Below are positions 25,869 through 60,448 of a stretch of 64,000 nt of DNA, piece after piece. Under the pieces are notes generated by a model that was not told the origin of the DNA, searched no databases, and worked only from the letters and a program-made list of their open reading frames with translations. The stretch is from a bacterium (GTDB lineage Bacteria > UBA8248 > JACPRG01 > G963555815). Made by a program: the position numbers and the translations under genes. How positions within the stretch are numbered: the stretch's first letter is position 1; each line of letters begins with the position of its first letter. The DNA is taken from the NCBI GenBank assembly GCA_965261595.1, contig CBDHDG010000004.1, positions 832,001 through 896,000 on the forward strand, in the 5' to 3' direction.

Positions 25869-26625
25869 ATGCCCAGACGAAGCGAGCTCAGGATAACCAA
25901 GCGCACCGTGGATGCGCTCACCGTCGAAACCGAGGATGCCGTCTTCTGGGATCGGGATCTGGCCGGCTTCGGGGTGCGTGTCCATGCCACGGGCCGCAAG
26001 GTCTACGTGGTGCAGTCCCGGGGGCCGATCGGGCCGAAGCGAGTGACCCTCGGGCGTCATGGGGACATGTCGACCGATGAGGCGAGGAAGCGGGCGGCCG
26101 TGGTCATCGACCGCATCAAGCAGGGCGAGGACCCCGTGCCCGCGCCACCCGTACCGGAGCTCACAGTGTCCGAACTGTCCGAACACTTCATGCGCGTCCA
26201 TGTCAAGGTGCATTGCAAGCCGAGCACGGCCGCCAAGTATCGATTGGTGCTCGACAAACACATCTTGCCGGTGCTGGGCGGGATGTCAATCAGCGAGGTC
26301 GGACGAGGGGAGATTGCGGCGCTGCATCACCGGCTCCACGACACACCTGCAATGGCCAACGGGACGGTCAATATCCTGTCGAAAATGTTCTCGCTGGCCG
26401 AGGCGTGGGACCGGATACCGCCCGGACGGAACCCGTGCCGGTCGGTGCGCCGTTACAAAATGCGGTCGCGCGAGCGGTTTCTGACGCCGGAGGAGTTCCG
26501 GCGGCTGGGCCGGGTATTGAGAGATGTGGAAACGGACGGCTCGGTGTGGCCGCCGGCAATCGCGGCGCTCCGGCTGCTGCTGCTGACCGGATGCCGGAAG
26601 AGCGAGATCCTGACGCTGCGCTGGG
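25869..26625 (+). pseudogene. Tyrosine recombinase/integrase with arm-DNA-binding (DUF4102-like) domain, truncated
   Basis: FWDRDLAGFGVRV, NPC, LLLLTGCRKSEILTLRW, then foreign sequence; HxxRH and catalytic Tyr absent. Confidence 0.85.
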
Positions 26626-26752
26626 AATTTATAGATCGCTTTTTCCCACGGCTTACGGCCATTGTATAACGCATTGATATTATAGGTTAATATCTGTTTC
26701 TCTATCTTTCCTGACTGACGACTTCCTGTAAAGTTCAACACTATTTCAACAC
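26621..26752 (+). repeat. Unclassified element end A (inverted partner at 37791-37923)
   Basis: CTGGGAATTTATAGAT.., IHF-like site, GTTCAACACTATTTCAACAC. Confidence 0.65.
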
Positions 26753-28111: not shown

Positions 28112-29515
28112 TGGACCGCCCCTGGGTTATTGGACACTCGGGTGAGGGTATTCGACCTCATGCGGCCTCCGCAACTTGAGCGAGTTTTTCCTGCCTTGCC
28201 TGGGCCGGCGTTCGGTAGCCGTAGCCCTCGAGAATCCAATGATGGTTATACAGGTTCTTGAACTCAAGCAGCGCCCACCGCAGTTCCTCTACGGTGGCGA
28301 AAGAGCGCACCCACAGGAGATTCTCCTTCAAGATGCGGATAAACCACTCACAGTAGCCATTTCCCTCGGGCGCCCGCACGAAGCTGGGCGAACTGGTCAT
28401 GCCCAGGTAGGCGATCTCCCGCTGAAAGTCATCGGACAGATAGGCGGGGCCGTGGTCGTGACGAACTTTAAGCCCCTCGGCGACGTCCGCCTCCAAGCCG
28501 GCGAAGCGCTCGGCGACCCCCTGCCGGATCGGCTCCAGGGCCTCGAAGCGGTTGCCGCTCTTGGCCGCATGGATCCCCACGCAGTCCACCGAGCAGTGAT
28601 CCACCGCCACGAACACCGAGGCCATCCCCTCCTCGGTGGTCACCGTCGTCGTCATGTGCGTGCCCCACATTCGGTCGGGCCGCTCGGTGCGGATGGTCCC
28701 GTTGTGGGCCTTGGGACCTCGGGGTTTGCCCACCCGGTGGGGGGCCTGAAGCCCCGCCTCCCGCATCAGGCGACGCACCCGCTCCTTGCTGGTGCGGATG
28801 CCCGCGAAGCGCAGCCTCGCCCACACCTTGCGGTAGCCCTCGCCATGGAAGGGAGAGTCCTCCAGGACCTGCCGGATGTGGCCGAGGAGTTCCGCATCGG
28901 TGCACGGGCCCACAGGGCCGCGCTTATTGGGCGTGGGGCGTTCATGAACGGGGACCGCCTCTCGCCGCCGTTGCGCGTAGACCGTGGAGCGCGCCAAGCC
29001 CCAAAGGGCGCACACCCGCTTCAGGCCGTAGGCTCTGCCCGTGGAGGTGAAGCGGGCCTGACTCATCGCCTCCACCTCCTGCCGGCTAAAGGGCGGCCGG
29101 CCTCCAGGCGGTCGATCTTCTCCCGCAGGACCTCGCCCTCCATCGTGAGTTCGCCCACCTTGGCCTTGAGCCGGGCGTTCTCCTCGTCCCGCTCATCCGC
29201 CGGGCGGGCTTTGAGCGCCGCCTCGCCCGCGCGAAGGAACGCCTCGCGCCAGGCGGAAAGCCGAGCCGCTGTCGTGCCCAACTCGCGGCAGAGCGTCTCC
29301 AGGCTCTCGCCCCGCAAAAGACGCAGGACCGCCTCCCGCTTGCGCTGGCAGGAGAACCGACCCCGCTCACTGCGATGCCCTGGGGCCTTGGCTCCGTTCG
29401 CCCTACGGGCGCCCTCCGCCAAAGCCCCCTCTTGCTTTTGTTCGTTCATCGCGACACCCCTTTCTCCATGAATCATGGATCAATCGAGTGTCCAACAAAA
29501 CCCTAGAGCGGGGGA
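28112..29515 (-). mobile_element. IS3-family element copy 1 (1404 bp; OrfA 29063-29449, OrfB 28158-29075)
   Basis: Imperfect terminal IRs around TTGGACACTCG; OrfB GYRKVWARL, rve core; near identical to 31826-33229 and 61068-62471; flanks not duplicated. Confidence 0.9.
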
Positions 29516-30481: not shown

Positions 30482-33277
30482 GAGATACGCTCAGATCTGG
30501 TGTATGGGGTGAATTGAAGAAGGCGGCGCATTCCTGCTGAAATGGGGTTGTGAAGAGCCCGGTTATTCAGCGAGAGAGGAGATGCGCCACCATGGAGAAA
30601 GATACGACGGTTACATTTTCGAATCCAGCCTTTCGGGACGAACTCAGCGAAGTGGTGCGCCACGGCGCACGGCAAATCATTCGACAAGCCGTGGAAGCGG
30701 AGTTGCAGGCCTTCCTGGAGGAGCATGCGGCCGAGCGCGACGGTCGGGGACGCCGATCGGTCGTTCGCAACGGCTACCTGCCTTCGCGGGATGTTTTGAC
30801 GGGAATCGGCCCGGTCCGTGTCCGTGTTCCCCGGACGCGGGACAGGTCCGGCGGGGGACATTGTTTCCGCTCGGAGTTGTTGCCGCCCTACCTGAAGAAG
30901 ACGAGGCGGGTGGAAGCGGTTGTGCCGTGGCTGTACCTGAAGGGGGTATCGACGAATGACTTCGAGGAAGCCTTGCAAGCGTTGTTCGGCGAATCGGTGA
31001 AGGGTTTGTCTGCGGCGAGTGTCGCACGTCTCAAGGGCGGCTGGGAGGTCGAGTACGCCCAATGGCGGGAGCGTGACTGGGGAGGCGAGGAGTTCGTGTA
31101 TCTGTGGGCGGACGGGATATACGTGAACGTGCGCAGCGAGGAGCGGCGTTGTCTGTTGGTGGTGGTGGGCTGCGACGTGCGTGGTTGCAAGCACTTCCTG
31201 GCCCTGGATGCGGGGTTCCGGGAATCGAAGGAGAGCTGGAAGGCGGTGCTGTTGAGCCTGCGCGACCGCGGGGTGAAGGCGGCGAAACTGGCGGTGGGCG
31301 ACGGAGGGCTCGGGTTCTGGTCGGCCCTGGCCGAGGTGTACCCAGAAACCCGGGCGCAGCGCTGCTGGGTGCACAAGACGGCGAACGTGCTCGACAAGCT
31401 TCCCAAACGCCTTCAGGGCAGCGCGAAGTCGATGTTGCATGAGATCTGGCGGGCGGATACACGGGCGAGAGCGGAGGAGGCGTTCAAGCGCTTCGTCGCC
31501 ACCTACGAAGCCAAATACCCCAAGGCCGCCGACTGCCTGGCCAGGGATCGGGAGACGCTTCTGTCCTTCTACGACTTCCCGGCGGCTCACTGGCAGCACC
31601 TGCGGACTACCAACCCCATCGAATCGACCTTCGCGACCATACGGCTGCGAACGGTGAAGACCAGGAACTGCCTGAGCGAGAAGACGGCGTTGAGCCTCGT
31701 GCATCAACTCGCCATGAGCGCCCAGAAACGCTGGCGTCGGCTACGCGGCTTCCGTCATCTGGCCGGCGTGGTCGCCGACGTGAAGTTCATCGATGGGATT
31801 GACGAGAGAGAGATGGGCAGGGAAGTCCCCCGCTCTAGGGTTTTGTTGGACACTCGATTGATCCATGATTCATGGAGAAAGGGGTGTCGCGATGAACGAA
31901 CAAAAGCAAGAGGGGGCTTTGGCGGAGGGCGCCCGTAGGGCGAACGGAGCCAAGGCCCCAGGGCATCGCAGTGAGCGGGGTCGGTTCTCCTGCCAGCGCA
32001 AGCGGGAGGCGGTCCTGCGTCTTTTGCGGGGCGAGAGCCTGGAGACGCTCTGCCGCGAGTTGGGCACGACAGCGGCTCGGCTTTCCGCCTGGCGCGAGGC
32101 GTTCCTTCGCGGGGGCGAGGCGGCGCTCAAAGCCCGCCCGGCGGATGAGCGGGACGAGGAGAACGCCCGGCTCAAGGCCAAGGTGGGCGAACTCACGATG
32201 GAGGGCGAGGTCCTGCGGGAGAAGATCGACCGCCTGGAGGCCGGCCGCCCTTTAGCCGGCAGGAGGTGGAGGCGATGAGTCAGGCCCGCTTCACCTCCAC
32301 GGGCAGAGCCTACGGCCTGAAGCGGGTGTGCGCCCTTTGGGGCTTGGCGCGCTCCACGGTCTACGCGCAACGGCGGCGAGAGGCGGTCCCCGTTCATGAA
32401 CGCCCCACGCCCAATAAGCGCGGCCCTGTGGGCCCGTGCACCGATGCGGAACTCCTCGGCCACATCCGGCAGGTCCTGGAGGACTCTCCCTTCCATGGCG
32501 AGGGCTACCGCAAGGTGTGGGCGAGGCTGCGCTTCGCGGGCATCCGCACCAGCAAGGAGCGGGTGCGTCGCCTGATGCGGGAGGCGGGGCTTCAGGCCCC
32601 CCACCGGGTGGGCAAACCCCGAGGTCCCAAGGCCCACAACGGAACCATCCGCACCGAGCGGCCCGACCGAATGTGGGGCACGGACATGACGACGACGGTG
32701 ACCACCGAGGAGGGGATGGCCTCGGTGTTCGTGGCGGTGGATCACTGCTCGGTGGACTGCGTGGGGATCCATGCGGCCAAGAGCGGCAACCGCTTCGAGG
32801 CCCTGGAGCCGATCCGGCAGGGGGTCGCCGAGCGCTTCGCCGGCTTGGAGGCGGACGTCGCCGAGGGGCTTAAAGTTCGTCACGACCACGGCCCCGCCTA
32901 TCTGTCCGATGACTTTCAGCGGGAGATCGCCTACCTGGGCATGACCAGTTCGCCCAGCTTCGTGCGGGCGCCCGAGGGAAATGGCTACTGTGAGTGGTTC
33001 ATCCGCATCTTGAAGGAGAATCTCCTGTGGGTGCGCTCTTTCGCCACCGTAGAGGAACTGCGGTGGGCGCTGCTTGAGTTCAAGAACCTGTACAACCATC
33101 ATTGGATTCTCGAGGGCTACGGCTACCGAACGCCGGCCCAGGCAAGGCAGGAAAAACTCGCTCAAGTTGCGGAGGCCGCATGAGGTCGAATACCCTCACC
33201 CGAGTGTCCAATAACCCAGGGGCGGTCCAGAAGCCGCTTGATTCAGGACGCCCATACACCAGATTTGACAGTAACTC
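30482..33277 (+). mobile_element. IS256-family element; transposase about 30591-33241 with its last codons interrupted by a nested IS3-family copy
   Basis: IRs GAGATACGCTCAGATCTGGTGTATGG / CCATACACCAGATTTGACAGTAACTC; RNGY, YLWADGIY, GDG.LGFW, QRCWVHK, RTTNPIES. Confidence 0.92.
31826..33229 (+). mobile_element. IS3-family element copy 2 (1404 bp; OrfB 32266-33183)
   Basis: 4-bp target duplication GAAG (31822-31825 / 33230-33233); the only copy with an intact W.TD catalytic Asp. Confidence 0.92.
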
Positions 33278-34289
33278 GGGGCTAAGATCAAACCTCTATT
33301 TTGCCATACAGATTTGACTTACCCTGCTATTTAACCGTATCTTCAATCTAGACCAGAATAGCCCCAAACTGGCACAACAAGAAACCTCGAAGTGACCAAA
33401 AGGAAACGCCTCTTATGAATCCTGATATCATCACCATTTTCAACAATAAGGGCGGCGTCGGAAAGACAACCCTCACTTTCCACTTAGCGCATGCTCTTGG
33501 TGAAATGGGCAAGAAAGTCCTCCTAATTGATCTTGACCCGCAGTGTAACCTAACCATCTTTTCTTTGGGTATGGAGGAAATTCACGATATTTGGGCACCG
33601 GAAGACGATTTCATTGACGATTTTGCCGCTTCGCTAGCCAAATTTAAGGACAGAGATTTCGTCAAACTCATAAAGATGCCACGTACGATCCATTTTGCTC
33701 TCAAACCTACAGAGGACGGCACTGGAGAACTCGATACATTACCTCCACCAGCAGAGTTAACAGACAATGTTCATCTCATTCCCGGACGACTCACACTTCA
33801 CCTGTTCGAGGCAAAGATAGGCGAACGATGGAGCGGTATCTATCAAGGAGACCCACTTGCAATAAGGACTGCCACGAGAGTTCGTCAGTTGTCATACGAG
33901 TACACAAAAAAATATGATTACGATCTAGTGATATTTGATACCTCTCCAAGTCTAGGTGCATTAAATCGCCACCTTCTCACATTGGCAGATGGTTTCCTCA
34001 TACCCTGTTCTCCAGACCTGTTCTCCGTTTACGGAATTCGAAACATCGCCAGCGCCTTGAGTGTGTGGAGGAAACAGTTCGACAGCATATTCCACCTGCT
34101 CTCAGACTCCAAACGCAGCCAGTTTCCCGAGAGCTTTGTGAAGCTGATCGGTTACACAATCTACAATGCCAAACGTTACTCGGGATCCCTGAATGACCTC
34201 GATCTTGCGCAAGCACACTACAATTATGCGAAAGAGATTCCGGTAACAATTGAACATTACTTGGATCCAGAGAACTCGTTACCTTTCGA

Positions 34290-35956
34290 CCCGCATTTCC
34301 CATATGGATCATAAGTTTTGTCGGACCGAATGCCGTTTTCTCGTGTAAGATCAAGGTGTTGGCCTCCCCCTGCCATCATCTTGCGAGGGGACCCAATGGG
34401 TGAAGCGAAGAAGGGGGCTTTGAAGATCCGTTTTGACCGTCGGCTGAGGCTTGAGTTTCACGGAACCAGGATCACTTCGGATGCGGGATTGCTGGCCTGC
34501 CGGGAGCTGGATGATGCGCTGGGTTTGACGGTGAGAGCGCCAGTGCAATTGCAAGAGATCCGTCATGGCCGGAACATCCAGCATGAGTTGGCGCCGCTAT
34601 TGCGCCAGTCGGTCTATAGCCGCTTGGCAGGGTATGAAGACACCAACGATGCCGAGCGGTTGGCCCAGGACCCCGCGATGCAAGCCGTGGTCGGCCGCCG
34701 AGCGCTTGAGAAGCAGGCGGCGGGCGCCAACACCCTGAGCCGGTTCGAGACCGAGGTTCTCACCAGGGAGGAGAATCTCAAGGGGTTGAGCGAGCTGAAC
34801 CGGGAGTGGGTGGACCGGGCCATGGCACACTCACCTCATCAGCGAATCATCCTGGACATGGACAGCTCGGAAAGCCCCGTCCATGGGGAGCAGGAAGGTA
34901 CGGCCTACAACGGCCACTTTCGTTGCACCTGTTATCACCCTCTTTTTTGCTTTAACCAGTTCGGGGACTGCGAAGGGGCGATGTTGCGCCCCGGCAACGT
35001 GCACAGCGCCGATGGCTGGCGCGAGTTGCTTTCGCCCATCGCGGCCCGGTATGAGCGGGCGGGTGTTCGCCGTTACTTCCGAGCCGATGCCGCCTTTGCG
35101 CGCCCGGAGGTCTATGAGTGCCTGGAAGCGCACAGCTTCCTTTACGCCATCCGCCTTCCCGCCAACGACGTGGTGCAGCGAGAGATCGACTTCCTCCTCA
35201 CCCGCCCGGTCGGTCGCCCGCCCAAGAGACCCATCATCTTCTATTACGACTTCCGGTATCAGGCTGGAAGCTGGGACCGTTCCCGGCGGGTCGTGGCGAA
35301 GGTGGAATGGCACTCAGGCGAACTCTTCCCTCGCGTCGGATTCATTGTCACGAACCTGACGGCTCGACCCGAGGGGGTCGTGCACTTCTACAACCAGCGA
35401 GGCACAGCCGAGCAATGGATCAAGGAAGGCAAGTACGCCCTGAACTGGACACGCCTTTCCTGTCACCGGTTCGTGTGCAACCAGGTGCGGCTCCTTCTCT
35501 TCGTCCTGGCGTACAACCTGGGCAATTTCCTGCGCAGGCTAGCCTGGCCCAGGGGGCTCAAGCACTGGTCGCTGCGAAGCCTCCAGGTCAAGCTCATCAA
35601 AATGGGCGGGAGGATTGTGCGGCACGCCCGGCAGATCATCTTTCAATTGGCCGAAGTAGCGGTATCCAGGGAAGAGTTCGCCATCATCCTGGACCGAATC
35701 AACCGATTACGGCCGGTGCCGGTCTAACCTTGTGCAGAGGGTTCCCGGCAGCATGAGGTGATTGGTTAACGGGTTGAACCGCGAACAAAGGGGACCGAAG
35801 GGCGAGGGTCCGCCTTTTGGGGCAGTCGATGGCCGTCAGCACCTTGTTGCGGAGGGTTGGAAGGCTCTTGACAAACCCATCGGAAGGGGATCAACTGGTT
35901 TTCATCGGGAAAGGGGACCGGAAACCACCCAAGCAAGTTGATATGGGAAATTCCGG
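34290..35956 (+). mobile_element. IS1380-family element with intact transposase (ATG 34396 to 35727)
   Basis: IRs CCCGCATTTCCCATAT / ATATGGGAAATTCCGG; TSDAGLL, GYED.ND, LDMDSS, RADAAF, YNQRGTAEQWIKE. Confidence 0.92.
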
Positions 35957-36171
35957 CTTGAGTCTTGAATTTCCATCTCCAAGGCATTCCGACTGAATCG
36001 CGGGGACGCCAACCTTATTTCCGCTGATCCCTTCGTTTTTCGTCCAAGCTTCCGCCGTTGCGGGACATGACCCAATGGGTCTTCAAGCTTTCCAACAAAA
36101 CCGTCATTTCCCAAGGGTCTGCCTGTCCTCTCATGACGGCCTATCCTCTCGATCTCTTCCTCGGATACGCC
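35957..36171 (-). pseudogene. Passenger fragment resembling the 3' end of a REP-associated tyrosine transposase (RAYT)
   Basis: Minus strand reads EEIERIGRHERTGRPLGNDGFVGKLE...RKLGRK, like RAYT/Y1 C-termini. Confidence 0.5.
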
Positions 36172-36398
36172 TTCGAAGGTCTCTTGTCGGACTCCATAGG
36201 TGGAAATTCTGTAATCCACAGCCACAACACATTTCCAAGCATGGCGCAAAAATACCACCAACCAATGTGGCTTCTCCCTGACGTGGATCTGGAACAAGAG
36301 GATAAAAATACCATTGCTGGAAACCGAGAGAGATACCGCAAGACTCAAAGAGCTTATCAGGAATTTGCCAAAGACTTTCTTGGCAGGGTTGCCGAGCT

Positions 36399-37078
36399 AT
36401 GAACGAAACCATCATAGAGGATGCTCTTAAACGGTACGATCAACAACGGCATGATCTTCAGATATTTATGGAAGGGGTCGTCAATTATATCGGAAGGCAT
36501 CCGGAGTTAAATTTGAATGGTCACCAAGTAGTGCACTCGTTCAAGAGTCGTCTGAAAGACCGGGAGCATTTGCGTCAAAAAATTCTTAGAAAGAGCGCGC
36601 AAGGAACGGAGATTAATTCGGAAAATCTATTTTCTAAAATAACAGATCTTGCAGGCGTTAGAATACTTCATCTTTTTCAAGAACATTTCGAGAGTATTGA
36701 TTCAGTTATTCGGCAAAAGGTGTTAGAGGAAGGGGATTGGTGGTTTGCCGAGCAGCCCAAAGCATACACATGGGATCCCAAACAGTTTCATTTTTTAAGC
36801 AGTTCGATCTCGAAGTGTCCGAAAAGCCCACCTCATATACGAGCGTCCATTATCTTGTCCGTCCGCGTGAAGATTCGGTGCTGTGCTGCGAAATTCAGGT
36901 GAGAACACTATTTGAGGAAATTTGGGCAGAAGTCGATCATCAGATAAACTACCCCGTACCTACAGGAGATATCTCCTTGCGCGAACAAATTGCAGTTCTA
37001 TCGAAGATCGTAGGTGCGGGAAGCCGGCTCTTGGATTCACTTAAGCGGGTCGAAACAGCGGTTAATGGTCCCAATTAA
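36399..37078 (+). pseudogene. RelA/SpoT-domain small alarmone synthetase-like protein with a single frameshift near 36780
   Basis: SRLKD...L.QK, ITDLAGVRIL, YTSVHY, EIQVRTLFEEIWAEVDH; ATGA overlap with the ParA stop. Confidence 0.85.
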
Positions 37079-37095
37079 TTTCTTTGTTCCTCTCT

Positions 37096-37211
37096 AGCAG
37101 GCTGCTAAAACAAGAAAGATTCGAATAGCGACAGTATGGAATCGTTATTAGGCAATTTGCCAACCGATATTGCTCGTGACAGTTCTCAAAACAGTTATTC
37201 AGTAGCCTGCT
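37096..37211. mobile_element. MITE-like element (about 116 bp)
   Basis: Terminal IRs TAGCAGGCTGCT / AGTAGCCTGCTA, non-coding interior. Confidence 0.6.
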
Positions 37212-37260
37212 ACTGTCCCGATTCTTTAGTTTCTACCACTATCCTGCATACTGGGCAGTT

Positions 37261-37750
37261 TTGAGGGTTCTCAGACAGAACCGCTTGATGGAATCGAGTA
37301 TCTCATCGGCGGTCGCTGTCTCCTTTGTCTGTTCCCTTTTGAGTCATCCGTTCCTAAGGAACAAAGGGCGGCGGTTTTGGGGAGAGAACGCGGATCGCAC
37401 TGGCACGCGGTCCTCGGAGATCACTTGTCTCAAGTGGGACTGGATACGTGGCGACGACCGTCATTCCGGCCGGATCGAGGTGCAGGCCCAGTTTCTGATG
37501 GCTACGATAGAGGAGGAGGCGGAAGTTGTAGTCGGCGGTGCTCATGACGGCGTTGCTCTGAACGCCGAGGCGTCCCTTGAGGAAGTTTCGATCGAGTTGG
37601 CCCTCGGTTTGTTGCGACCAATAACGGCCTCGATGGCGCGTGAACCCCTCGCGGTACAATTTGTTGATCCCCGCCGTTCGACGTGGATAGGCCGCTATGT
37701 AATCTTCCAGGGCCTGTTCCAGGCCGAGCCGGATCCCTCGAATCGGTGTC
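37261..37750. mobile_element. Mosaic of remnants: IS630-like tail (-), tyrosine integrase fragment (+), IS5-like transposase tail (-)
   Basis: ATADEILDSIKRFCLRT; TGTRSSEITCLKWDWI; LDRNFLKGRLG...NAVMS.A.YNFRLLL. Confidence 0.55.
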
Positions 37751-37790: not shown

Positions 37791-37923
37791 GGTGTTGAAA
37801 TAGTGTTGAACCCAGGCTGAACGCGCCTTCCATGGTCATCGCGATACCGACAAGAATAATTATTTATCAATGAGTTATACGGATACTCGCCGTGCAGGAA
37901 ACAACCTATCCATAAATTCCCAG
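37791..37923 (-). repeat. Unclassified element end B (inverted partner of 26621-26752)
   Basis: Minus strand CTGGGAATTTATGGATAG.., IHF-like site, GTTCAACACTATTTCAACAC. Confidence 0.65.
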
Positions 37924-38262
37924 CCAAGCGCCAGCGCGTACACCCGCTGCCGCAACAACGTCCCCAACTCATGTTCCACCCGCCTCGCGTCCCGACCGTC
38001 CTCAAAACAGGCCGCGAAGCCTGCGATCAACTTCACCCGCCCCTCGGTGTCGCGTAGCAAAAGACCGCCCGCATCAGAGGTGATCGCCCCGCCGTTGGAA
38101 GTGGCGATCACACGCCGAGAACCCAACCCTTGGAATTCCATCTGTTTTGCGATACACTGTGTGCGAGTCAAGTCGGTCTCCTTTCTTCGGGCAACCCGTT
38201 GATCAAAAAGAGTTTACCCGAAAAAAACCGGCTTGGCTCTCTTTCTTTGTGTGATATCCAGG
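37924..38262 (-). mobile_element. IS1380-family 5' remnant (a different subfamily), truncated by end B
   Basis: CCTGGATATCACA left end; GG.ITSDAGGLLL, F.D.R....VEH....LLRQRVYALALG. Confidence 0.8.
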
Positions 38263-38338: not shown

Positions 38339-40063
38339 ATGAATGCCGCATTGCAGCGAATCGAAGCCAACGAGAAACAGATCGCCGCCGTCTTTTCCGA
38401 CAATTACTCGTTCACCATACCTCCTTATCAAAGGCCCTACGCTTGGGAACTCCAGCATGCGACCGAACTACTCGATGATCTCTTGGACGCGATGCAACCC
38501 AACAGCGAATCAGATGGACTTTATTTTCTAGGAAGCATTGTTCTCGTAAAGATGCCCGAGGAGTCGGAAGCGCGGGTTGTCGACGGACAACAACGCCTCA
38601 CAACCTTGACGATTTTGTTTAGTGTTTTGCGTGACCTTACTCAAGACAGTGAGCTAAGACTCTCCCGTGACGCACACATCAAACAAGCAGCCAGCAAAGA
38701 CCTTGGGCGCCCGGAACGTCTGCGGCTTCATTTGCGCCAGCGTGACCAAGATTTTTTCGAAAAAACCATTCAGCGACGTGACGCGACATCCGACTTGCCG
38801 CGCCTTGAGAGTCTCGACGGCAGTGGATCTCATATAGTTGAAAATGCCACAGCCTACCGAGAGCAATTGTCGGCCATGACCGATGAACAACGCGATGACC
38901 TTATCTCCTTTGTTCTGAACAAATGTTACCTAGTAGTGGTCACTGTACCCACCGATGCAGCAGCCCGACGTATTTTTACAGTACTCAATGCCCGCGGCTT
39001 GGATTTGACGGCTACCGACATACTCAAAGCTGATTTCCTTGAACGTGCTGGCGAATCCCAAGAGAAACAACTTTCGGACCGTTGGGAGGAAATAGAGCTC
39101 GCTCTCGACCGTGATAGATTCGCCGATCTTTTCACTCATATCCGAATGATATTTCAACGCGAAAAACCACGCTCGGCACTTGATATCGGTTTTCCTCAGT
39201 TCGTTCGTCCGTTTCTCGGCGATCCCGCGCGATTTATTTCAGACACATTGGAGCCCTTTGCCGATGCGTTCACATTCTCTGAAGACCACAGCAAGATCAG
39301 TGCACTTTTTGGGACACATACGGCTCGACTCCTTGAATCATTGGGGCGTTTGGACAACAAGGATTGGATACCCCCCTTGTTGTTGCGATTCAAACAGCAT
39401 TTGGAAAACGGACACGTCGATATTTCTGAATTCATTATGAAACTCGAACGACTGGCATACTACCTTTTTATTATTCGCGCTGACGTCAACACGCGGATGG
39501 CCAGATATGCCGATGTTTTGGAAGAGATTGATCCGCATTCGAATCGCACCCAACGGTCTTCCGGTCTCGAACTTGATAATGTAGAAGCCTACGATTTCTT
39601 CACGGCACTAGATGGTCCTATTTACCTAAAGAGCCGTGTCGTCAAATCTCTTTTACTGAGGTTGGAGTTAAGTCTGTCAGATGGATCTGCTTCATATGAC
39701 TATCCAACTATTTCCGTAGAGCATGTCTGCCCGCAAACCATAGGGTCAGGAAGTCAGTGGGACAGCTGGTTTAGTGTCCGACAAACGCATACAGAGTGGC
39801 TACACCGTGCGGCCAACCTAGTCCTCCTGACCCATCGGAAAAACTCCAGCGCAAGCAATTGGGACCTGGACAAGAAGAAGAAAACCTACTTCACTAGAAA
39901 TGATGCCTGTCCATTCTTGCTTACTCGTCATGTTCTCGACGAGATCGAGTGGACGCCAGCAGTACTACAAGAGCGTCAAGTGCAAGTACTGCGTTCGCTA
40001 GCTAAGTCCTGGGAAATTACAGAGCAGTTCGATAGTTGGCTAGTTGTCCGGGATGTACTTTGA
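38339..40063 (+). CDS. DUF262-DUF1524 protein (GmrSD/SspE-like modification-dependent nuclease)
   Basis: IPPYQRPYAW, VVDGQQRLTT, IFTVLNARGLDL; C-terminal HNH-like SVEHVCPQ..NLVLL..KN. Confidence 0.9.
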   Translation: MNAALQRIEANEKQIAAVFSDNYSFTIPPYQRPYAWELQHATELLDDLLDAMQPNSESDGLYFLGSIVLVKMPEESEARVVDGQQRLTTLTILFSVLRDLTQDSELRLSRDAHIKQAASKDLGRPERLRLHLRQRDQDFFEKTIQRRDATSDLPRLESLDGSGSHIVENATAYREQLSAMTDEQRDDLISFVLNKCYLVVVTVPTDAAARRIFTVLNARGLDLTATDILKADFLERAGESQEKQLSDRWEEIELALDRDRFADLFTHIRMIFQREKPRSALDIGFPQFVRPFLGDPARFISDTLEPFADAFTFSEDHSKISALFGTHTARLLESLGRLDNKDWIPPLLLRFKQHLENGHVDISEFIMKLERLAYYLFIIRADVNTRMARYADVLEEIDPHSNRTQRSSGLELDNVEAYDFFTALDGPIYLKSRVVKSLLLRLELSLSDGSASYDYPTISVEHVCPQTIGSGSQWDSWFSVRQTHTEWLHRAANLVLLTHRKNSSASNWDLDKKKKTYFTRNDACPFLLTRHVLDEIEWTPAVLQERQVQVLRSLAKSWEITEQFDSWLVVRDVL

Positions 40064-40224: not shown

Positions 40225-41315
40225 TCATGCTGCACGCGATGATCGTGCGCGGAAACGCACGATGAAAGCAGGGCTGCACTCTGGTACCAACGCCCGGGAC
40301 GGAAAGCTGTGACGGCAGTCGTGGATGCGTGTGTCCTTGAGCCCGGCGCGGTCGAAGATCAAATTCAAGGGTCGTTTTGGTTGCGGATCGGTCGGCCCTC
40401 GATCTTGTACGAGATGACCCAAGGAATGTCCGGTAGGCGCAGGATCCTCTGCAGCACGCGCACGGCTGTCGGCGCGAGCGAGACTGCCCGTGGACCGGTC
40501 TTGGTGTCAGGCAATCTGAGCTCGTTCGCCTTGAGGTCCACCTCGTCCCAGCGAAGCGAGAGGATCTCGTTCTTCCGGCATCCGGTCAGCAGAAGCAGGC
40601 GGATAGCCGCCACCGCGTGAACCGAAACCCCCTTGCAGGTCTCCGCCTCGTCCAGCACCCGGCCGAGACGCCGGAACCCCTCCCCGGTCAGGAACCGGTC
40701 GCGGGCGCGCTCACGGTACTTGACCACCAGCCGGCACGGGTTGGCGGCCTCCGGGATCAGCCCCCGGTCCCCGGCCGCGTTGTAGATCCGCGAGAGCACG
40801 TCCACCACGCGGTTCGCCATGAACGGCGTATCCCGGAGCTTGTGGTGCAACTCGCTCACATGGACGTGCCCGACCGCAAGCGCGGGCATCCTGCCGAGCG
40901 CGGGCAGGATGTGTTTCCGGACGGCCTGGCCGTACATCTCCACCGTCTTCGGCTTGCACCGCACCGCGACGTGTTCTTCGAGATACGCCCGGGCAAGCTC
41001 CGCCACCGTCGGTCCACCGGCCAGCCTGGCCGACATGGGTTCGGGGACCGGCTCCTCGCCCGCCTTGATCCGCGCGATGATAAGCGCCGCCCGCCTGCGC
41101 GCCTCCTCAGCCGTAACGACGCCGTGGCGTCCCACCGTCACCCGCTTCGCCGCCCGGCCGCCCGCGCGGGTCTGCACCACGTAGTACTTGCTCCCCGACG
41201 GATAGACCCGTACCCCGAAACCGCTCAGTTCGCTGTCCCAGAACACCGTGTCCTTCCCGACCTTGAGCGCCTCCACCGTACGTCTGGAAATCGTCTTCGT
41301 CTCAAACCTCGCCAT
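40225..41315 (-). pseudogene. Arm-type tyrosine integrase with a degenerate C-terminus
   Basis: FWDSELSGFGVRV, LTGCRKNEI, DTKTG; frameshift before RIHDCRHSF; catalytic Tyr region lost. Confidence 0.85.
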
Positions 41316-41327
41316 ACCTCTCCTCCC

Positions 41328-42506
41328 TCACGCGGAGCCGTTCAGAACGTCCGCCCCGATGCTGCCGCCGACCTTCGCGGCGGAGGCCCTCTCGGTATCA
41401 CGCGCGAGATGCGCATACCGCGCCGTCGTCGTGACCTTTTGATGACCCAGGAGCTTTCCGATCATCGGAAGTCCCTCGCCGAGGGCCAGCGCCCTCGACG
41501 CATAGCTGTGCCGGCAGTCGTGGATGCGGACGTCCTCGAGCCCGGCGCGCGCCCGGAGCCTGAGCCAGATGCCGTCCAGGTTCTTGAGATGCTCCCCCGG
41601 GTTCCGTCCGGTGATGACCCAGGGGTTGTCCTCAAGGCGCGGAATCCCGGCGAGCACCGCCTCCACCACCGGCGTCAGCGGAGCCCGCCGCGCGCCCGTT
41701 TTCGCATCCTGTATCCGCAGTTCGCCCGCCGTGCGGTCGATGTCGTCCCACCGCAGCGTCACGATCTCGTTCTTCCGGCATCCGGTCAGAAGCAACAGGC
41801 GGAGCGCGGCGACCCCGGAGGCGAGCGCCGAACCGTCACTCTCGGCCTCGTCCAGTACCTCTCCCAGCCGCCGGTATTCCTCGGGCGTCAAGAACCGCTC
41901 CCGGCGCCGTTCCCTGTAGCGCCGCACCGAGCGGCACGGGTTCCGCCTCGGCGGCGTCATGCCCCAGGCCTCGGCGAGCTTGAACATCTTCGCCAGCACG
42001 CTCACCGTCTGGTTGGCCTGGTAGGGCTTGTTCCGGAGTTTGTAATGGAGCGCCGAGACATGGGACCGTTCCACGGCGGACAGTGCGAGTGCCCCCAGTT
42101 CCGGCGCGATATACAGATCGACCACGCGCCGGAACACTTCCACGGTGTTCGGCCGGCAGTTCACCTCGACATGGGACCGCATGTAGCGCTCGGCCAGATC
42201 GGCCACCGTCGGTTCCGGTGCGGGAGGAGGAGGATGCGGATCCTCGCCCCGCTTGATCCTGTCGATCACGACGGCGGCCTCCCGGCGCGCCGCATCGGCG
42301 GAGATATCCCCGTGCCGGTCGATGGAGGCGCGCCTGGGTCCACCGGACGGACCCCGCGTCTGTACGACATAGACCTTGCGGCCACCGGCGTAGACCCGCA
42401 CCCCGAAGCCGGGGAGTTCCCGGTCCCAGAAGACGGCGTCCCCGTCTTTGACCGCGAGCGCGTCGACGACTCGTTTGCTGAGCTTGACTGCATCCTTCCG
42501 GACCAT
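41328..42506 (-). CDS. Arm-type tyrosine recombinase/integrase, intact
   Basis: Arm domain plus R (TGCR), K (AKTG), HDCRH, LLGH and ARY catalytic residues. Confidence 0.93.
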   Translation of the reverse strand: MVRKDAVKLSKRVVDALAVKDGDAVFWDRELPGFGVRVYAGGRKVYVVQTRGPSGGPRRASIDRHGDISADAARREAAVVIDRIKRGEDPHPPPPAPEPTVADLAERYMRSHVEVNCRPNTVEVFRRVVDLYIAPELGALALSAVERSHVSALHYKLRNKPYQANQTVSVLAKMFKLAEAWGMTPPRRNPCRSVRRYRERRRERFLTPEEYRRLGEVLDEAESDGSALASGVAALRLLLLTGCRKNEIVTLRWDDIDRTAGELRIQDAKTGARRAPLTPVVEAVLAGIPRLEDNPWVITGRNPGEHLKNLDGIWLRLRARAGLEDVRIHDCRHSYASRALALGEGLPMIGKLLGHQKVTTTARYAHLARDTERASAAKVGGSIGADVLNGSA

Positions 42507-43500: not shown

Positions 43501-45051
43501 GTGACAGCTATGGTTCGCTTATTCCATCATAAGGACGAGACAATACATGGCGACCTTTTGATTGAGGAGAACTCGTCAGGTAGCCGAGTAGAGGTTTCTT
43601 ACGTCCCGCCTCCATTGAGGTTGGCTGAGTTCGGCATAAATCCTGATGAGGCAGGTAAATATGCAACAAAGCTTTTAGAGTTCGACACTGTTTCCGGTAA
43701 GTTTAGTATTTTCCCCATAAAGACAGTGGGTCCGAGTGAAACTTTTCTCAAACCAAAATATGAGAAGATACGGAAAATCACACTGACTGACGGGAACCCG
43801 GTAATCTTGACAAGTGCTGGGGACAGTGACTCGTTGAAAGACTATGCTCGTTCACTAACGTTCGGGCCTACGCAACATTTTGAAGACGATGTTGATGCTG
43901 CGGACATTGCAGAGTCGCCAGAGTCGACGGACCAGATTATGGAAATTCTGGAAAGCCTTCCATCTGGATTTACCAAAGATTATGACTACGGCCTGGGGCT
44001 TGCCAAATCGTACCGATTCATCGTGGAGGCCGTAGAAGAGCTAACGGACTGCACGGAGATCGTGATATCGGCGCAGGGTAAGACGAGTGTGGATGACGCA
44101 GGGACAATATTCCATATTGCAACTGAGGATTTTGAAACGATCCGCAAGATGCTGAATTCTACGACACGAATGGGTCAAGTTGTGGGAAGGTCCGTAAAAA
44201 GTGGAGAAGCATATAATTTCTTTGCTGAAATTCTTGGTCGACCGGAAATTCCAATAAAGGTGGGACGTCATCGGTTACGAAAACTGCTCACGAGAGCAGT
44301 GTTAGACGATGACACAAATCTGTCAGAGGAAGAACAAGAAGAGGTAATTGGTGTCATAACCCGGAGCATGAAGTCTATTTCGGAGAGCAGGCTTGAAACA
44401 CTGGTACGATTACGAAATGATATAGAGCTCGTCAATCTTGGAAGTTTGATCGATCGCTTCCGGGTGATGCTTGGAGGAAGTCATGCCGAGTCTGTATGGC
44501 AAGAATTCTTCAATGAGAACCCGTTCATTTTGAGCATGGCATTTGGGTATCCTATCATTAAGGTTGGACAGCAAGCATTTATCGGAGGCCGAAAGCTCTC
44601 CGGAAGAGGAGAGAAGATCACGGATTTTCTAGTGAAGAATACTATGACGAACAACACGGCGGTAGTAGAGATAAAGACACCGGGCGCGAAACTCTTGAAG
44701 GAAAAGCAGTTTCGGGGCGGCGTTTTTTCGCCATCAAAGGACCTTTCGGAATCCACTATTCAAGCACTCGATCAGAAATATCAACTTCAACGTGATATTT
44801 CTGGAATAAAGGACAGAAGTAGAGAGCCTGATATTGAATCTTATGCCGTCCAATGCTGCTTAGTAATTGGGACCATGCCGGAGACAGACGACGAGAAAAA
44901 ATCCTTCGAACTCTTTAGAGGAAATTCAAAGGATGTGCAGATCGTTACATTCGATGAACTGTTGGAGAAATTGGTCCGATTGAGAGACCTATTGGCGTCC
45001 TCTGACGATGCCGAGGAGGAGCTATCGCCTGAGGTGGACGTACCGTTCTGA
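43501..45051 (+). CDS. sduA: Shedu anti-phage nuclease (DUF4263) with a long N-terminal domain
   Basis: WQEFFNENPFIL, ITDFL, VVEIKTP, Q.LDQ, I.TFDELL in the C-terminal half. Confidence 0.85.
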   Translation: MTAMVRLFHHKDETIHGDLLIEENSSGSRVEVSYVPPPLRLAEFGINPDEAGKYATKLLEFDTVSGKFSIFPIKTVGPSETFLKPKYEKIRKITLTDGNPVILTSAGDSDSLKDYARSLTFGPTQHFEDDVDAADIAESPESTDQIMEILESLPSGFTKDYDYGLGLAKSYRFIVEAVEELTDCTEIVISAQGKTSVDDAGTIFHIATEDFETIRKMLNSTTRMGQVVGRSVKSGEAYNFFAEILGRPEIPIKVGRHRLRKLLTRAVLDDDTNLSEEEQEEVIGVITRSMKSISESRLETLVRLRNDIELVNLGSLIDRFRVMLGGSHAESVWQEFFNENPFILSMAFGYPIIKVGQQAFIGGRKLSGRGEKITDFLVKNTMTNNTAVVEIKTPGAKLLKEKQFRGGVFSPSKDLSESTIQALDQKYQLQRDISGIKDRSREPDIESYAVQCCLVIGTMPETDDEKKSFELFRGNSKDVQIVTFDELLEKLVRLRDLLASSDDAEEELSPEVDVPF

Positions 45052-45570: not shown

Positions 45571-47418
45571 ATGCAGGTTAGCCGACTGACGCTGGAGAAC
45601 TTTCGAGGAAGCAAGTCTGCCGAGCTTGAATTCGATGGACATACGTTACTAATCGGCGGGAACAATGTCGGCAAGTCCACGATTTGCGAAGCACTTGAGC
45701 TTGCGCTCGGGCCGGACAGGCAAAGGCGGTTTCCTGTCGTTGAGGAGTACGACTTCTACAACGCGGTCTACTTGGACGAGAACGAAGATCCGGTAGAAAT
45801 CCGGATCGAGGTGCTGTTGACGGACGTGACGCCGACGATTGAGAAGGCTTGCGGCAACTATCTGGAGCGCTGGGACCCGGCGAACCGGCGGATTCTTGGT
45901 CAAGGCGAGATTGGCCAGGTCGATGGTGCAGGGTTCGTTTGGTGCCTGCGGCTCTTGACCGTTGCACGCTACGACCAGGAAGAGGACGAGTTCGAGGCGG
46001 CGACGTACTACGCTAGGGCCTATGACCCAGAGGATGAGGACGACAGCCGTGTTCCCCGGGCGATTAAGCGCAACTTCGGTTTTCTTTACTTGCGTGCCCT
46101 TCGCACCGGGTCCAGGGCGCTCAGCTTGGAGCGCGGGTCGCTCCTGGACGTGATACTCCGCATTCAGAGCCTTCAGACAGGTATTTGGGAGCATGTCCGA
46201 CGGCGGCTAGAAGCATTAGACCCGCCCATTGAGGAAGGCGCCGCCAAACTTACACCGGTGCTTCGGACCATCGAAGCCCGTCTCGCCGAGTACATTGCGA
46301 TCGCCAAACCGGGCGAAGCGACACGCTTGTTCGTGTCGCAGCTGACACGCGAGCATCTTCGCAAGACCCTAAGTTTCTTCATCTCCGTCACGGAAGACCA
46401 GAAGCCTGTTCCATTTCAGGACGTCGGAACGGGAACGCTTAACACCTTGGTGCTGGCGCTTCTGAGTTTCATCGCCTAGCTCAAGGAAGAGAACGTCATC
46501 TTCGCCATGGAGGAGCCGGAGATCGCGCTCGCTCCCCACACACAGAGGCGAATTGCGACCTATCTCTTGACGAAGACGACCCAGTGCTTCGTCACCTCAC
46601 ACTCGCCGTACGTGATCGAGACCTTCGATCCTGATCGCATCGTCGTCCTGCGGAGGGACAACAAGGGGACAGTCACGGGCAAGCGGGTAACTCTCAGCGC
46701 GGATGTGAAAGCGAAGACGTATCGCCGCTATATCCGTCGCGGGTTTGCGGAGGCCATGTTGGGCCGCGGTGTCGTCGTGGCTGAAGGGATCACAGAGCAG
46801 TTGGCCCTCCAAGCGGTGGCCGAGAAGCTCGAGTCTTCCGATGATGCCCGATATCCGCTGGATCTGTCGGGCATCACGGTGATCACAACGGATGGCGATG
46901 GCAGCATCGCGGAGTTCGGACGCTTCTTCGTGTCGCTCGACCTGCCGACCTTTGCCTTTTTTGACAAGAGGGAACGGTCCGCGAATGAACAGAAGGCTTT
47001 GGACGAGGCCGGTTTTCAGATCCTCAACGAGACTGCGTACGCCGGCATGGAGGACCTGCTGGCCGCTGAGGTTCCGTTGAAGCATCAGTGGGCATACCTT
47101 GAAGGGGTTCGGGAGTCTGGCGTTGCGCCCAAGATTCTGATACCCGCAGCACCCCCGGGTGATGACAAGATTCGCAATTTCACCCGTCAGGTACTGAAGG
47201 ATAGCAAAGGATGGGGTCGGGCGGCCGACTTGATCGAACGCTGCGAGGTGGTCGAGTTGCCACCCACTATCGTCGGATTTCTTGAGCGGATTTACGCACA
47301 GTTCCCGCGTCCCAAGAGACCGGAGATTGCCGGGCCTGACGGAGAGGCGGCGGAAGATCCAGCAGAAGGAGCCAAGCCCGCTGGTGCTGTGGAGCCGCAG
47401 CCTGCGGAGGATGCATGA
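45571..47418 (+). pseudogene. gajA: OLD-family ATP-dependent nuclease (GajA-like) with an in-frame TAG at 46477-46479
   Basis: LENFRG, GGNNVGKST, GTGT, Walker B EEPE..L.PH, VTSHSP, TOPRIM VVAEG.TE; both ORFs in the same frame. Confidence 0.8.
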
Positions 47419-49148
47419 CCTTCGTTTCCTGTCCCGATCGAGACCGCGTTCTAGCAGCGGACGGTCATGTTGTCGTTACGGGAGGACCTGGCTGCGGAAA
47501 AACAACGGTTGCGCTCCGCAAAGCGTTGCTACGGGTTGGAGCCGGGTTGCTGGCGGGTCAGAAGGTGCTGTTCCTCAGCTTCTCTCGGGCGGCTGTTGCC
47601 CGCATCGTACAGGCGGCTCGTAAGGACTTGCCGAGAGAGTCCCGCAGGGATCTCGACATTCAGACCTTTCACTCATTCTGTTGGCAGCTCGTACGGGGGC
47701 ATGGTTATCTCCTGGGTGCTGTGTCACCGATAAGCCTGCTGCCCCCGCACGATGAACGTGCGATACGCAACGGCGCCAGGAACTACGACCCGGTCTGGGA
47801 TGCCGAACGGGAACGTCTCTTCCTCGAAGAGGGGCGCATCGCCTTCGATCTGTTCGCGCCCAAGGCTCTCGCGCTTCTTGAGGGGAGCGCAGCGCATAGG
47901 CAGCTGATCGCTGATCGCTATCCGCTAATCATCGTGGACGAGGCGCAGGACACGGGCACGGAGCAGTGGGCCTGCATGGAAGCGCTCGCCAACCTCACTC
48001 AGCTCGTGTGCCTTGCCGACCTAGAGCAGCAGATCTACGGCTTCAGGCCTGACGTGAGTCCTGAGCGCCTTAAACAGATCATGGCAGCGCTTGAACCGTT
48101 GGAGGTGGACCTTGGTGTTCAGAACAACCGCAGCCCTGGGGCGGAGATCGTCAAGTTCGGTAACGATATCCTCGCACAGACGCCGCGAGGTTCCGCCTAT
48201 ACGGGTGTCAGCCAGCGGATGTTCCACCCAGAGGCTGCATCGCGCGACAGTGCCATTCGCAGCGCCGTAGGGATGCTCTGGAAAAGGACCACCGAGACGA
48301 CGGGGGCGCCACCGCAGAGCATTGGCTACCTGACGAACTGGGGTAAAGGTGTAACGATCATCGCCCGTGCACTTCAGGGCGGCGACGGCATCAAGGAAAT
48401 CCCGCACCGTGTTGTCATGGACGAGGCCGAGGTGCTCCTCGCTACACGTGTCGTTGCCCTTTGCCTGGAACCGGTCAGAGATCGCTGGGCAACTCTGGCA
48501 AGCGGGCTTGACTTGATTGGCAAGTTGTACCGGGCGCGGGGCACAGCGAAGAAGGTTGAGCAGCTAGGCAGAAACGCCGCTGATGCTCGCGAGGAAAGGG
48601 TGCGGGGAAACGCAAAATGTCCACATGCCCTGAAGGATATTCTTGAGTATCTGCAAGCCAATCCCCACAGCGGAAGTCCCGGGCGGGATTGGCTGAGCGT
48701 CCGGGGCATGTTTGAGGCCAGCGGCGCGGCGGAGCTGCGGTTGGTTGCTCGTCAGGTCATTTATTTGATGGGTTTTAACCGCGGACGACGGATTTCTGAT
48801 GCCCTTGCCGAGGTTTGGCAGCGGCGTGCAAGCTACGAGGGGGCGCGTGCCCTCATCGAAACGGCGGTTACCGAGGACCAGATCATCGGCAGCGATGGTG
48901 GCTTGAGCGGCATCAACGTAATGATCATGCACAAATCCAAGGGGAAGGAATTCGACGGGGTGATCATCCTGCACTTGGGCAATAGCATGTCGCCTTTGTC
49001 ACCAGACTATGAGCGGGCACCGCATTTGAAGAGTCGACGATTGCTCCGGGTTGGGATAACGCGGGCGAAGCAGCACGTTCTGATGCTGACCGATGCGTAT
49101 AGTCATTCGCCACTCCTGAAGAGACACAGTCTCAATCGCCAAGGATGA
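47415..49148 (+). CDS. gajB: UvrD/Rep-like SF1 helicase (GajB-like)
   Basis: GGPGCGKTT, TFHSF, IIVDEAQD, HKSKGKEFD.V, VGITRAK; ATGA overlap with the OLD gene. Confidence 0.8.
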   Translation: MTFVSCPDRDRVLAADGHVVVTGGPGCGKTTVALRKALLRVGAGLLAGQKVLFLSFSRAAVARIVQAARKDLPRESRRDLDIQTFHSFCWQLVRGHGYLLGAVSPISLLPPHDERAIRNGARNYDPVWDAERERLFLEEGRIAFDLFAPKALALLEGSAAHRQLIADRYPLIIVDEAQDTGTEQWACMEALANLTQLVCLADLEQQIYGFRPDVSPERLKQIMAALEPLEVDLGVQNNRSPGAEIVKFGNDILAQTPRGSAYTGVSQRMFHPEAASRDSAIRSAVGMLWKRTTETTGAPPQSIGYLTNWGKGVTIIARALQGGDGIKEIPHRVVMDEAEVLLATRVVALCLEPVRDRWATLASGLDLIGKLYRARGTAKKVEQLGRNAADAREERVRGNAKCPHALKDILEYLQANPHSGSPGRDWLSVRGMFEASGAAELRLVARQVIYLMGFNRGRRISDALAEVWQRRASYEGARALIETAVTEDQIIGSDGGLSGINVMIMHKSKGKEFDGVIILHLGNSMSPLSPDYERAPHLKSRRLLRVGITRAKQHVLMLTDAYSHSPLLKRHSLNRQG

Positions 49149-59633: not shown

Positions 59634-59641
59634 AGGTACGC

Positions 59642-60379: not shown

Positions 60380-60448
60380 TCTGCTCCTGCTGCCCAGCCT
60401 GTCGCTTAGCTGGTGCCCTCGCATACCCTCGCCGGAGGCTGTTGGCTG

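Follow-up and report, generated by a model that had tools for sequence, protein, structure and literature searches.

Small alarmone synthetases (SAS) take part in conflict systems that, so far, have been found to control them through small antitoxins, through fused sensor domains (CapRel) or, in a preprint, through a nucleoid protein that acts as an activator. In the toxSAS modules (FaRel, FaRel2, PhRel, PhRel2 and CapRel; PMC7229694), a single-domain synthetase and an unrelated partner gene form a conserved, often overlapping two-gene operon that spreads horizontally. The portion of the main text of that paper available to us lists five subfamilies of validated toxins, classes RelP and RelQ with the non-toxic enzymes, and never mentions a further subfamily, pRel. 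The PANGU type I system, as far as the accessible part of its description goes (10.64898/2026.04.06.716658), couples the YejK-like nucleoid protein Pag1A to the GRel SAS Pag1B: when the nucleoid is degraded, the dimer bound to its DNA comes free, attaches to an SAS tetramer that is inert by itself, and activates it. Neither gene is toxic alone, and the DNA-bound protein is an activator, not an antitoxin. Here we describe a locus at positions 33415..37078 of a 64,000-nt stretch of bacterial DNA (the window; contig CBDHDG010000004.1 of GenBank assembly GCA_965261595.1), in which a gene for a ParA-like ATPase precedes one for a pRel SAS. We read it, with about an even chance of being right, as an inactivated copy of a horizontally mobile conflict module in which an ATP-driven switch ATPase would gate an SAS effector.

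The pair shares with the toxSAS modules the single-domain synthetase, the conserved two-gene operon whose genes often overlap, the unrelated partner gene and the signs of horizontal spread. It differs in that its SAS is a pRel, outside the five validated subfamilies, and in that its partner is a 366-aa ParA-type ATPase that resembles none of the six antitoxins described in the portion available (PMC7229694). With PANGU, as described in the accessible part, it has in common the two genes and the SAS effector in second position. PANGU's own features (a DNA-associated dimer encoded first, a partner that activates the SAS, and a sensor family that is also combined with other effectors) are precedents for what is here guessed. 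The partner in our locus is an AAA_31/CbiA P-loop ATPase of the ParA/MinD type rather than a YejK-like protein, and its SAS is a pRel, not a GRel, and lacks the acidic C-terminal domain of Pag1B. The searchable literature, which included the supplement of PMC7229694 in part, contained no paper linking a ParA-type protein with an SAS. An unspecific search of the same literature for the ParA-SIR2 pairing described below gave no evidently relevant paper among the matches listed. Thus, as far as these searches reach, the pairing of pRel with a ParA-type ATPase and the link of this ATPase branch to SIR2 are new; the name of the pRel subfamily was known, and in the available parts of the sources pRel is otherwise unstudied. 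An earlier note on this DNA, written from the sequence alone, knew of no characterised system with this architecture; neither PADLOC (2023) nor the searchable literature supplied one.

The copy in the window is dead, with its ATPase gene split by an IS1380-family unit and its synthetase gene frameshifted (Table 1). Four open reading frame (ORF) pieces are present at the locus (33415..34314, encoding 299 aa; 36058..36402; 36399..36902; 36737..37078), from which the earlier note had reconstructed a 366-aa ATPase by removing 34290-36171 together with one TTCGA copy. Copies of TTCGA lie at 34285-34289, as the last bases of the 5' ATPase part, and at 36172-36176. Comparison with an intact 366-aa relative (P0121) gave an exact join: the N piece (33415-34287, 291 aa) is identical to residues 1-291 at 290/291 positions and the C piece (36172-36399, 76 aa) to residues 291-366 at 75/76, so that the two fit seamlessly once the insert and one TTCGA are taken out. 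In total, 364/366 residues are the same as in P0121. The 3' piece matched no Pfam family of its own.

The second gene was repaired in the same way. An intact 226-aa relative (P0001) is identical to the translation of 36399-36779 at 125/127 positions (residues 1-127) and to that of 36782-37075 at 98/98 (residues 129-226), so that codon 128 is the broken one and the missing base falls between 36779 and 36780. Over both parts, 223/225 readable residues are the same as in P0001. This agrees with the proposal of a roughly 226-aa SAS with one base missing near 36780 and an ATGA start/stop overlap with the ATPase gene. The missing base may be either a true mutation or a sequencing error. The motifs listed in the earlier note for the ATPase (NNKGGVGKTT, DLDPQ and DTSPS) and the four for the synthetase (SRLKD, DLAGVRI, YTSVHY and EIQVRT..EEIWAE..H) are all in the translations, with the deviant Walker A (KGGVGKT), DLDPQ and DTSPS in the 5' ATPase part. 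The low GC content that it remarked on is also real (0.48 in the 33-34 kb segment and 0.46 in the 36-37 kb segment vs 0.60-0.72 across most of the window). A promoter and terminator scan of 33150-37400 found sites no more numerous than in shuffled sequence.

The ParA-like/SAS pair is a genuine, strictly co-conserved, translationally coupled and widespread two-gene module. A scan based on the SAS alignment, covering one genome for each of 185,579 species, gave 406 pattern matches, of which 322 encode an SAS relative; the pair statistics that follow rest on the best 80 of these 322 loci. An ATPase homologue lies directly upstream on the same strand in 80/80, which bears out the conserved pairing expected by the earlier note. 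Stop and start codons overlap in 47/80, and no more than 14 nt separate the genes in 78/80, a measure that takes the start codon nearest the upstream stop and is therefore biased towards short gaps. Pairwise identities of the ATPases and the SAS proteins correlate with r = 0.88, whereas the best of 1,000 label shuffles reached 0.09, which indicates that the two proteins share their history. The loci span Alpha-, Beta- and Gammaproteobacteria, Acidobacteriota, Bacteroidota, Firmicutes, Chloroflexota, Poribacteria, Nitrospinota, Myxococcota, Desulfobacterota, Magnetococcales and one archaeon (Methanothrix). Occurrence is patchy (322 loci in 185,579 species). Across the more than ten phyla and the archaeon the SAS proteins are 47-71% identical, which points to horizontal spread. 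There is no conserved third gene; when 1,472 called ORFs around the loci were clustered, the next neighbour family occurred in 7/80 loci.

Imperfect ATPase copies were found in five of the 80 loci. Those of L015 and L031 are frameshifted, that of L038 lacks its first 211 residues, that of L068 is cut by the end of the contig and that of L051 is divergent (32% identity). In L038 (9506-10660, Paracoccus thiocyanatus) the ATPase remnant abuts a glycine-cleavage T-protein gene in what is a clean deletion, and the SAS frame is full length with all motifs present. A more distant SAS (41% identity) with an ATPase (51%) upstream is encoded on the Caballeronia replicon pNK81. No ParA-SAS fusion occurs among 24 longer SAS relatives, which is weak evidence. 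Complex predictions for ATPase and SAS (alignments A2 and A3) scored 0.22, 0.45 and 0.07 vs a mark of 0.32, and are evidence neither way.

The synthetase appears to be catalytically complete. The intact relative P0001 matches RelA_SpoT (PF04607) at 2.9e-16 over profile positions 1-109 of 113, and the two halves of this domain were recovered in the window pieces; together with AAA_31 in the 5' ATPase part, the profile searches suggested in the earlier note thus returned both expected families. Invariant in 74 sequences are R51, K53, D83, G86, R88, Y147, S149, H151, E165, Q167 and R169. The predicted SAS model (predicted local distance difference test, pLDDT, 94.5) has the SAS fold, with RelP 6fgj (E 1e-11, template modelling score 0.70/0.79) and RelQ 5dec (9e-10) as its closest matches. 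Assignment to pRel follows the authors' label on close relatives in their alignment: in supplement file 4 of PMC7229694, available in part, Beijerinckia indica WP_012384420.1, whose row agrees with P0067 in the visible part of the alignment, bears the pRel label, and Oceanibaculum pacificum WP_084462705.1 carries the same label. Searches of PADLOC-DB v2.0.0 gave no match for the SAS pieces, and for the intact relative PDC-S33 at E 0.0028 with no passing stretch.

Fifteen longer pRel-like synthetases (P0241-P0255; 44-49% identical, 401-528 aa), including those of Paenibacillus pabuli and P. azoreducens, have 190-290 extra residues, which form a C-terminal extension in the four inspected and match no Pfam family in the two scanned. 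The extension may be a fused sensor or regulator, by analogy with CapRel. Also among the longer SAS relatives are one further protein with methyltransferase domains and one with PF00942.

The ATPase has the marks of the ParA/MinD (SIMIBI) group, namely the signature lysine of the deviant Walker A, the Walker A' aspartates and the Walker B aspartate. K12, G13, G14, G16, K17, T19, D39, D41 and D175 are invariant in the 74 sequences, so the predicted active site is an intact ParA/MinD dimer-sandwich that keeps all residues for ATP-dependent dimerisation and hydrolysis. Its AlphaFold2 model (pLDDT 92.8) has the ParA/Soj fold; by Foldseek the closest structure is 3pg5 (6e-15), followed by ParA 8ray (2.9e-11) and Soj 6iub (1.7e-10). 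3pg5 is the uncharacterised protein DIP2308 of Corynebacterium diphtheriae and the closest solved relative over nearly the whole length (profile match E 7.9e-37, positions 2-341). Both have the FNNKGGVGKTT, DPQCN and SLG..NR motifs that mark this branch, although they are only ~24-26% identical. For DIP2308/3PG5 we found no functional paper, only mentions in methods papers and in one unrelated paper. The ATPase is more conserved than the SAS (mean column identity 62% vs 47%) and is the more similar partner in 86% of 2,701 sequence pairs, which would be unusual for a simple antitoxin. It matched no full-length model in PADLOC-DB v2.0.0; the P-loop alone (37 residues) of PDC-M28B was hit.

Given the ParA fold and motifs, one might suppose that the locus derives from a system for DNA partition or cargo positioning, as a variant or a remnant of it, and that its SAS is incidental. 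We consider this highly improbable. The ATPase has the fold of ParA, Soj and MinD and also their deviant Walker A, signature lysine included; unlike them, it has an extra C-terminal helical region and the module has no ParB, MinE or centromere partner. It stays far below the cut-offs of the NCBIfam partition ATPase models (NF041546, ParA_partition, 76.7 bits vs 180; TIGR03453, 66.1 vs 348). In BLAST searches against P0121, SAS-linked ATPases score 376-583 bits (including a Nostoc orphan at 411), whereas MinD scores 44 and a small plasmid ParA 28. ParB_N was found in one of 300 neighbouring ORFs, at the divergent locus L051, where it lies two genes away on the opposite strand. In the window, none of 79 scanned ORFs has a ParB or Rep domain, as the earlier note had held, and the parB partition loci that it named as a refuting case were not seen. 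The module is chromosomal in 80/80 kept loci, and none of 72,556 plasmid records encodes the SAS at 60% identity or more. A search of 50,697 phage records found no close relative of the SAS, the best match being 34% identical.

More distant members of the ATPase branch are coupled to another effector type. Searching the plasmid records with the ATPase at E <= 1e-30 returned only six of 72,556, though ordinary parA genes abound there: Nostoc pNFSY02, Caballeronia pNK81, Photobacterium sp. GJ3 and three Salmonella enterica plasmids. The Photobacterium and Salmonella ATPases are 32-33% identical to the query, and when the Salmonella protein was used as a further query, Vibrio ponticus and Spirosoma oryzicola were found as well. 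Each of the four genera has a gene of ~290 aa, annotated as, or resembling, SIR2, that lies downstream of the ParA-like gene and overlaps it (by 4 nt in Salmonella, 8 nt in Photobacterium, 4 nt in V. ponticus and 4 nt in S. oryzicola). The SIR2 partners scanned, those of Salmonella and Photobacterium, match the ThsA, Dsr and LmuA SIR2 models at 1e-17 to 1e-21, and the ATPases linked to them match no PADLOC model. SIR2-linked ATPases score 114-145 bits against P0121. In a quick tree with long-branch warnings, supported only by the Shimodaira-Hasegawa approximate likelihood ratio test, they form one group (support 95) and the Nostoc orphan nests among the SAS-linked ATPases. Two effector types thus appear, by sequence, with the branch: pRel SAS (more than 300 species) and presumed SIR2 NADases (plasmids of Vibrionaceae, Salmonella and Spirosoma), which suggests that the ATPase is a switch whose effectors can be exchanged. 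E. coli genomes contained no DNA match to the ParA-SIR2 pair of Salmonella.

Sir2-HerA type defence, as far as the part of the source available describes it, likewise couples an ATPase gene to an exchangeable effector gene; HerA, however, is a RecA-like hexameric ATPase rather than a ParA-type dimer, and there is no sequence relation. IbfA (PMC12111858) was considered as a related system and set aside, being an unrelated ABC-ATPase-TOPRIM protein.

Two further relatives of the ATPase were noted. On Vibrio campbellii p1 (L087, 3495-4502; 138 bits) a ParA-like gene has 'mobile mystery' genes and one for type I restriction as neighbours, and the listed annotation shows no effector gene downstream of it or of the Nostoc orphan. 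Salmonella phage ST160 (L088, 3498-4571), like SE1 and ST-32, encodes a ParA-like protein that is 25% identical over 97% of P0121 (E 1e-24, 111 bits). In these P22-like phages the c2 repressor gene and a DUF3024 gene lie shortly upstream of it on the same strand (ST160, SE1). In phage lambda this position is taken by rexAB. A place downstream of the repressor is the kind of site where prophages keep exclusion genes.

The genomic settings are mixed. After 13 of 14 redundant Poribacteria loci had been dropped, 54 loci had three called ORFs on each side, and 50 of these were scanned (300 ORFs, Pfam). A clear mobile or defence gene lies within three genes in 19/50, and two or three more are ambiguous (19-22/50). 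Defence neighbours include TIR and AbiJ genes (L001), type I restriction-modification (L014, L025), MmeI (L040) and KwaB (L042); others are BrnT and ParE toxins, integrases, transposases and prophage genes. PHROGs annotation assigns L011 to a prophage and L053 to an integrase-primase island; L050 falls within a P2-like prophage, with the terminase on one side and replication gene A on the other. In P2-like phages, the region that separates gene A from the packaging genes is a known defence-gene hotspot. The defence-island setting put forward in the earlier note holds for the window, where the island is a true one, and only partially elsewhere.

Toxicity, the direction of regulation, the trigger and a defence role are what we infer for the module. 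The SAS is taken as the effector: its catalytic residues are complete, and the module lacks a third gene able to read a signal. It would be a pRel nucleotide pyrophosphokinase with a RelP/RelQ-like fold. Once switched on, it would stop growth, either by synthesis of (p)ppGpp or (pp)pApp that drains ATP or by tRNA pyrophosphorylation. The ATPase would be an ATP-driven switch that holds the SAS inactive as long as the cell is healthy and permits its activity once a trigger, for instance phage infection, arrives, and is probably more than a passive antitoxin. A switch is favoured over a plain antitoxin because the ATPase keeps every catalytic residue, is larger and more conserved, and has relatives coupled to another effector. 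Since ParA dimers bind to DNA non-specifically, a nucleoid-sensing role is conceivable, and one could guess that the ATPase reads the state of the nucleoid. More tentatively, and with more doubt than belief, the ParA-like branch could be a new class of ATP-driven infection sensors that gate interchangeable abortive-infection effectors, perhaps by reading nucleoid or DNA integrity.

The architecture also fits a classical toxin-antitoxin addiction pair, in which a constitutively toxic SAS is held by a ParA-like antitoxin and stabilises mobile DNA rather than defending against phage. Bicistronic overlap with the putative neutraliser first is the arrangement by which toxic SAS modules were found (PMC7229694, available in part), BrnT and ParE toxins and mobile genes adjoin some loci, and both genes are dead in the window. 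The earlier note took this double loss as a sign of a toxic effector that cannot persist without its partner. That argument is not supported, since the other broken genes of the island (GajA split, QatA with an IS3 copy, a degenerate second IS1380 copy) show a general decay driven by insertion sequences (IS) that suffices to explain it. Furthermore, the SAS frame is intact beside a damaged ATPase in 3/80 loci (L015, L031 and L038, with the two frameshifts possibly assembly errors), which argues mildly against a constitutively lethal SAS. The supposed antitoxin is also larger and more conserved than the supposed toxin, with every catalytic residue kept; the module is nearly absent from plasmids; and the ATPase branch pairs with SIR2 as well. 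We therefore regard an addiction pair as unlikely.

Several observations count against the gated conflict module that we prefer. Approximately 28-31 of the 50 loci have no mobile or defence gene within three genes (a raw count with no background rate), and PADLOC found nothing convincing in 22 of these. The SAS is closer in sequence and fold to the housekeeping, non-toxic RelP and RelQ than to the validated toxic SAS: a PDB profile search with it returned RelP/RelQ-type chains only (hmmsearch 5e-11), no toxSAS chain in the PDB passed E 0.01 by SAS sequence profile, and CapRel 7ztb matched the model at E 4.5e-6 with 14% identity. The ATPase of Nostoc flagelliforme pNFSY02 (L082, 4995-6122) is 52.5% identical to P0121 and has no SAS downstream, nor any SAS remnant at the locus even at E 10. 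The SIR2-linked ATPases are 32-34% identical to P0121, so that any function would be transferred from them by inference, and nucleoid sensing is a guess.

Some of these points would suit a physiological role with no part in conflict, in which the SAS, like RelP/RelQ, would be a non-toxic alarmone synthetase that serves stress adaptation and is positioned or regulated by the ATPase. RelP and RelQ (SAS2 and SAS1 of Firmicutes; PDB 6fgj, 6ewz and 5dec) are the best structure and profile matches and have the same conserved catalytic motifs, and over half of the loci sampled have ordinary metabolic or cell-cycle genes around them. Identity to them is only ~20%, however, and they are stand-alone housekeeping enzymes without an ATPase partner. 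The patchy distribution, with identities that point to horizontal spread, the variable neighbourhoods without a conserved third gene, the copies in prophages and defence islands, and the pairing of the ATPase branch with SIR2 all speak against such a role, which we rate as quite improbable.

The unit that split the ATPase gene in the window belongs to the IS1380 family by its DDE transposase, its terminal inverted repeats and its short target duplication. Its transposase gene (34318-35727) matches DDE_Tnp_1_4 (Pfam, 5.6e-134) and the IS1380 transposase model NF033539 (NCBIfam, 2.3e-115). The inverted partner of the left end (CCCGCATTTCCCATAT, 34290-34305) lies at 35941-35956 (16 nt, 88% complementary), and the 5-bp TTCGA duplication encloses the whole unit, whose end lies 215 bp past this right inverted repeat. 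Because the right repeat falls short of the insert edge, the last 215 bp (35957-36171) are extra, unrelated DNA that was carried along, probably through readthrough past the right end. Elements of the IS1380 family, ISEcp1 among them, are known to run beyond their right end and mobilise adjacent DNA, with a 5-bp duplication around the entire unit, and the unit seen here fits this behaviour. A minus-strand ORF across the 215-bp stretch (35902-36348) matches no Pfam family. A second, degenerate copy of the element at 49167-50608 is 86% identical to insert positions 1-1440, with its transposase split into ORFs 49273-50046 and 49838-50638. Between the SAS and GmrSD genes, a 98-aa ORF on the minus strand (37875-38171) resembles the N-terminus of an IS1380-type transposase by eye and is probably another IS fragment.

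The island around the locus is heavily decayed, and the pair is one of several defence genes there broken by insertion sequences. The first 25 kb of the window hold housekeeping genes that serve the synthesis of purines and sugar nucleotides, and from ~25.9 kb onward integrase fragments and insertion sequences are abundant. The scans recovered the GmrSD, Shedu, Gabija, restriction-modification and Qat neighbours named in the earlier note, the last as QatA, with GajA and QatA broken (Table 1); the window's Gabija system is thus probably inactive too. Three 305-aa IS3-family transposase ORFs (28158-29075, minus strand; 32266-33183, plus strand; 61114-62031, minus strand) are probably copies of one element, given their identical HTH_21 scores of 43.8 bits. 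One of them stops 231 bp upstream of the ParA-like start and another splits QatA. Tyrosine-integrase genes or fragments at 25869-26666, 40368-41315 and 41331-42506 mark a composite island. There are no tRNA genes in the window, and hence no tRNA marker for the island.

Table 1. Features of the ParA-like/SAS locus and its island (window positions), with the ParA-like/SIR2 pairs of the plasmid loci (locus positions).
Feature	Position	Strand	Evidence or remark
ParA-like ATPase gene, 5' part (codons 1-291 and two bases)	33415..34289	+	Pfam AAA_31 6.6e-30, CbiA 1.2e-17
IS1380-family transposition unit, 1,882 bp	34290..36171	+	splits ParA-like gene
ParA-like ATPase gene, 3' part (second TTCGA copy, 76 codons, stop TGA 36400-36402)	36172..36402	+	
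ATGA overlap of ParA-like stop codon with SAS start codon	36399..36402	+	sequence
SAS gene (pRel subfamily, by label on relatives), 5' part, codons 1-127	36399..36779	+	RelA_SpoT profile positions 1-49, 5e-6
One-base deletion shifting SAS frame by -1, codon 128 broken	36779..36780	+	comparison with P0001
SAS gene, 3' part in shifted frame, codons 129-226, stop TAA 37076-37078	36782..37078	+	RelA_SpoT profile positions 56-109, 3.3e-9
GmrSD-type protein	38339-40060		
Shedu SduA	43501-45048		match 9.6e-149
Gabija GajA, two ORFs	45571-46476 and 46507-47415		model positions 1-299 and 309-591 of 600
Gabija GajB, whole	47415-49145		
Type II methylase and XhoI-type restriction enzyme	57915-60376		
QatA interrupted by IS3 copy, parts 60413-61132 and 62490-63392	60413-63392		QatBCD positions beyond window
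ParA-like/SIR2 pair on plasmid, L083	3968-5910		
ParA-like/SIR2 pair on plasmid, L084	3992-5855		
ParA-like/SIR2 pair on plasmid, L085	3519-5407		
ParA-like/SIR2 pair on plasmid, L086	3501-5356		

ParA proteins are textbook DNA-positioning motors. If the gated conflict module is the correct reading, the ParA fold would have been recruited for immunity or addiction and wired to SIR2 or alarmone-synthetase effectors, and a ParA-type ATPase partner would be a new way of controlling an SAS effector. It would also provide the first function for the pRel subfamily and for the structural-genomics protein 3pg5.

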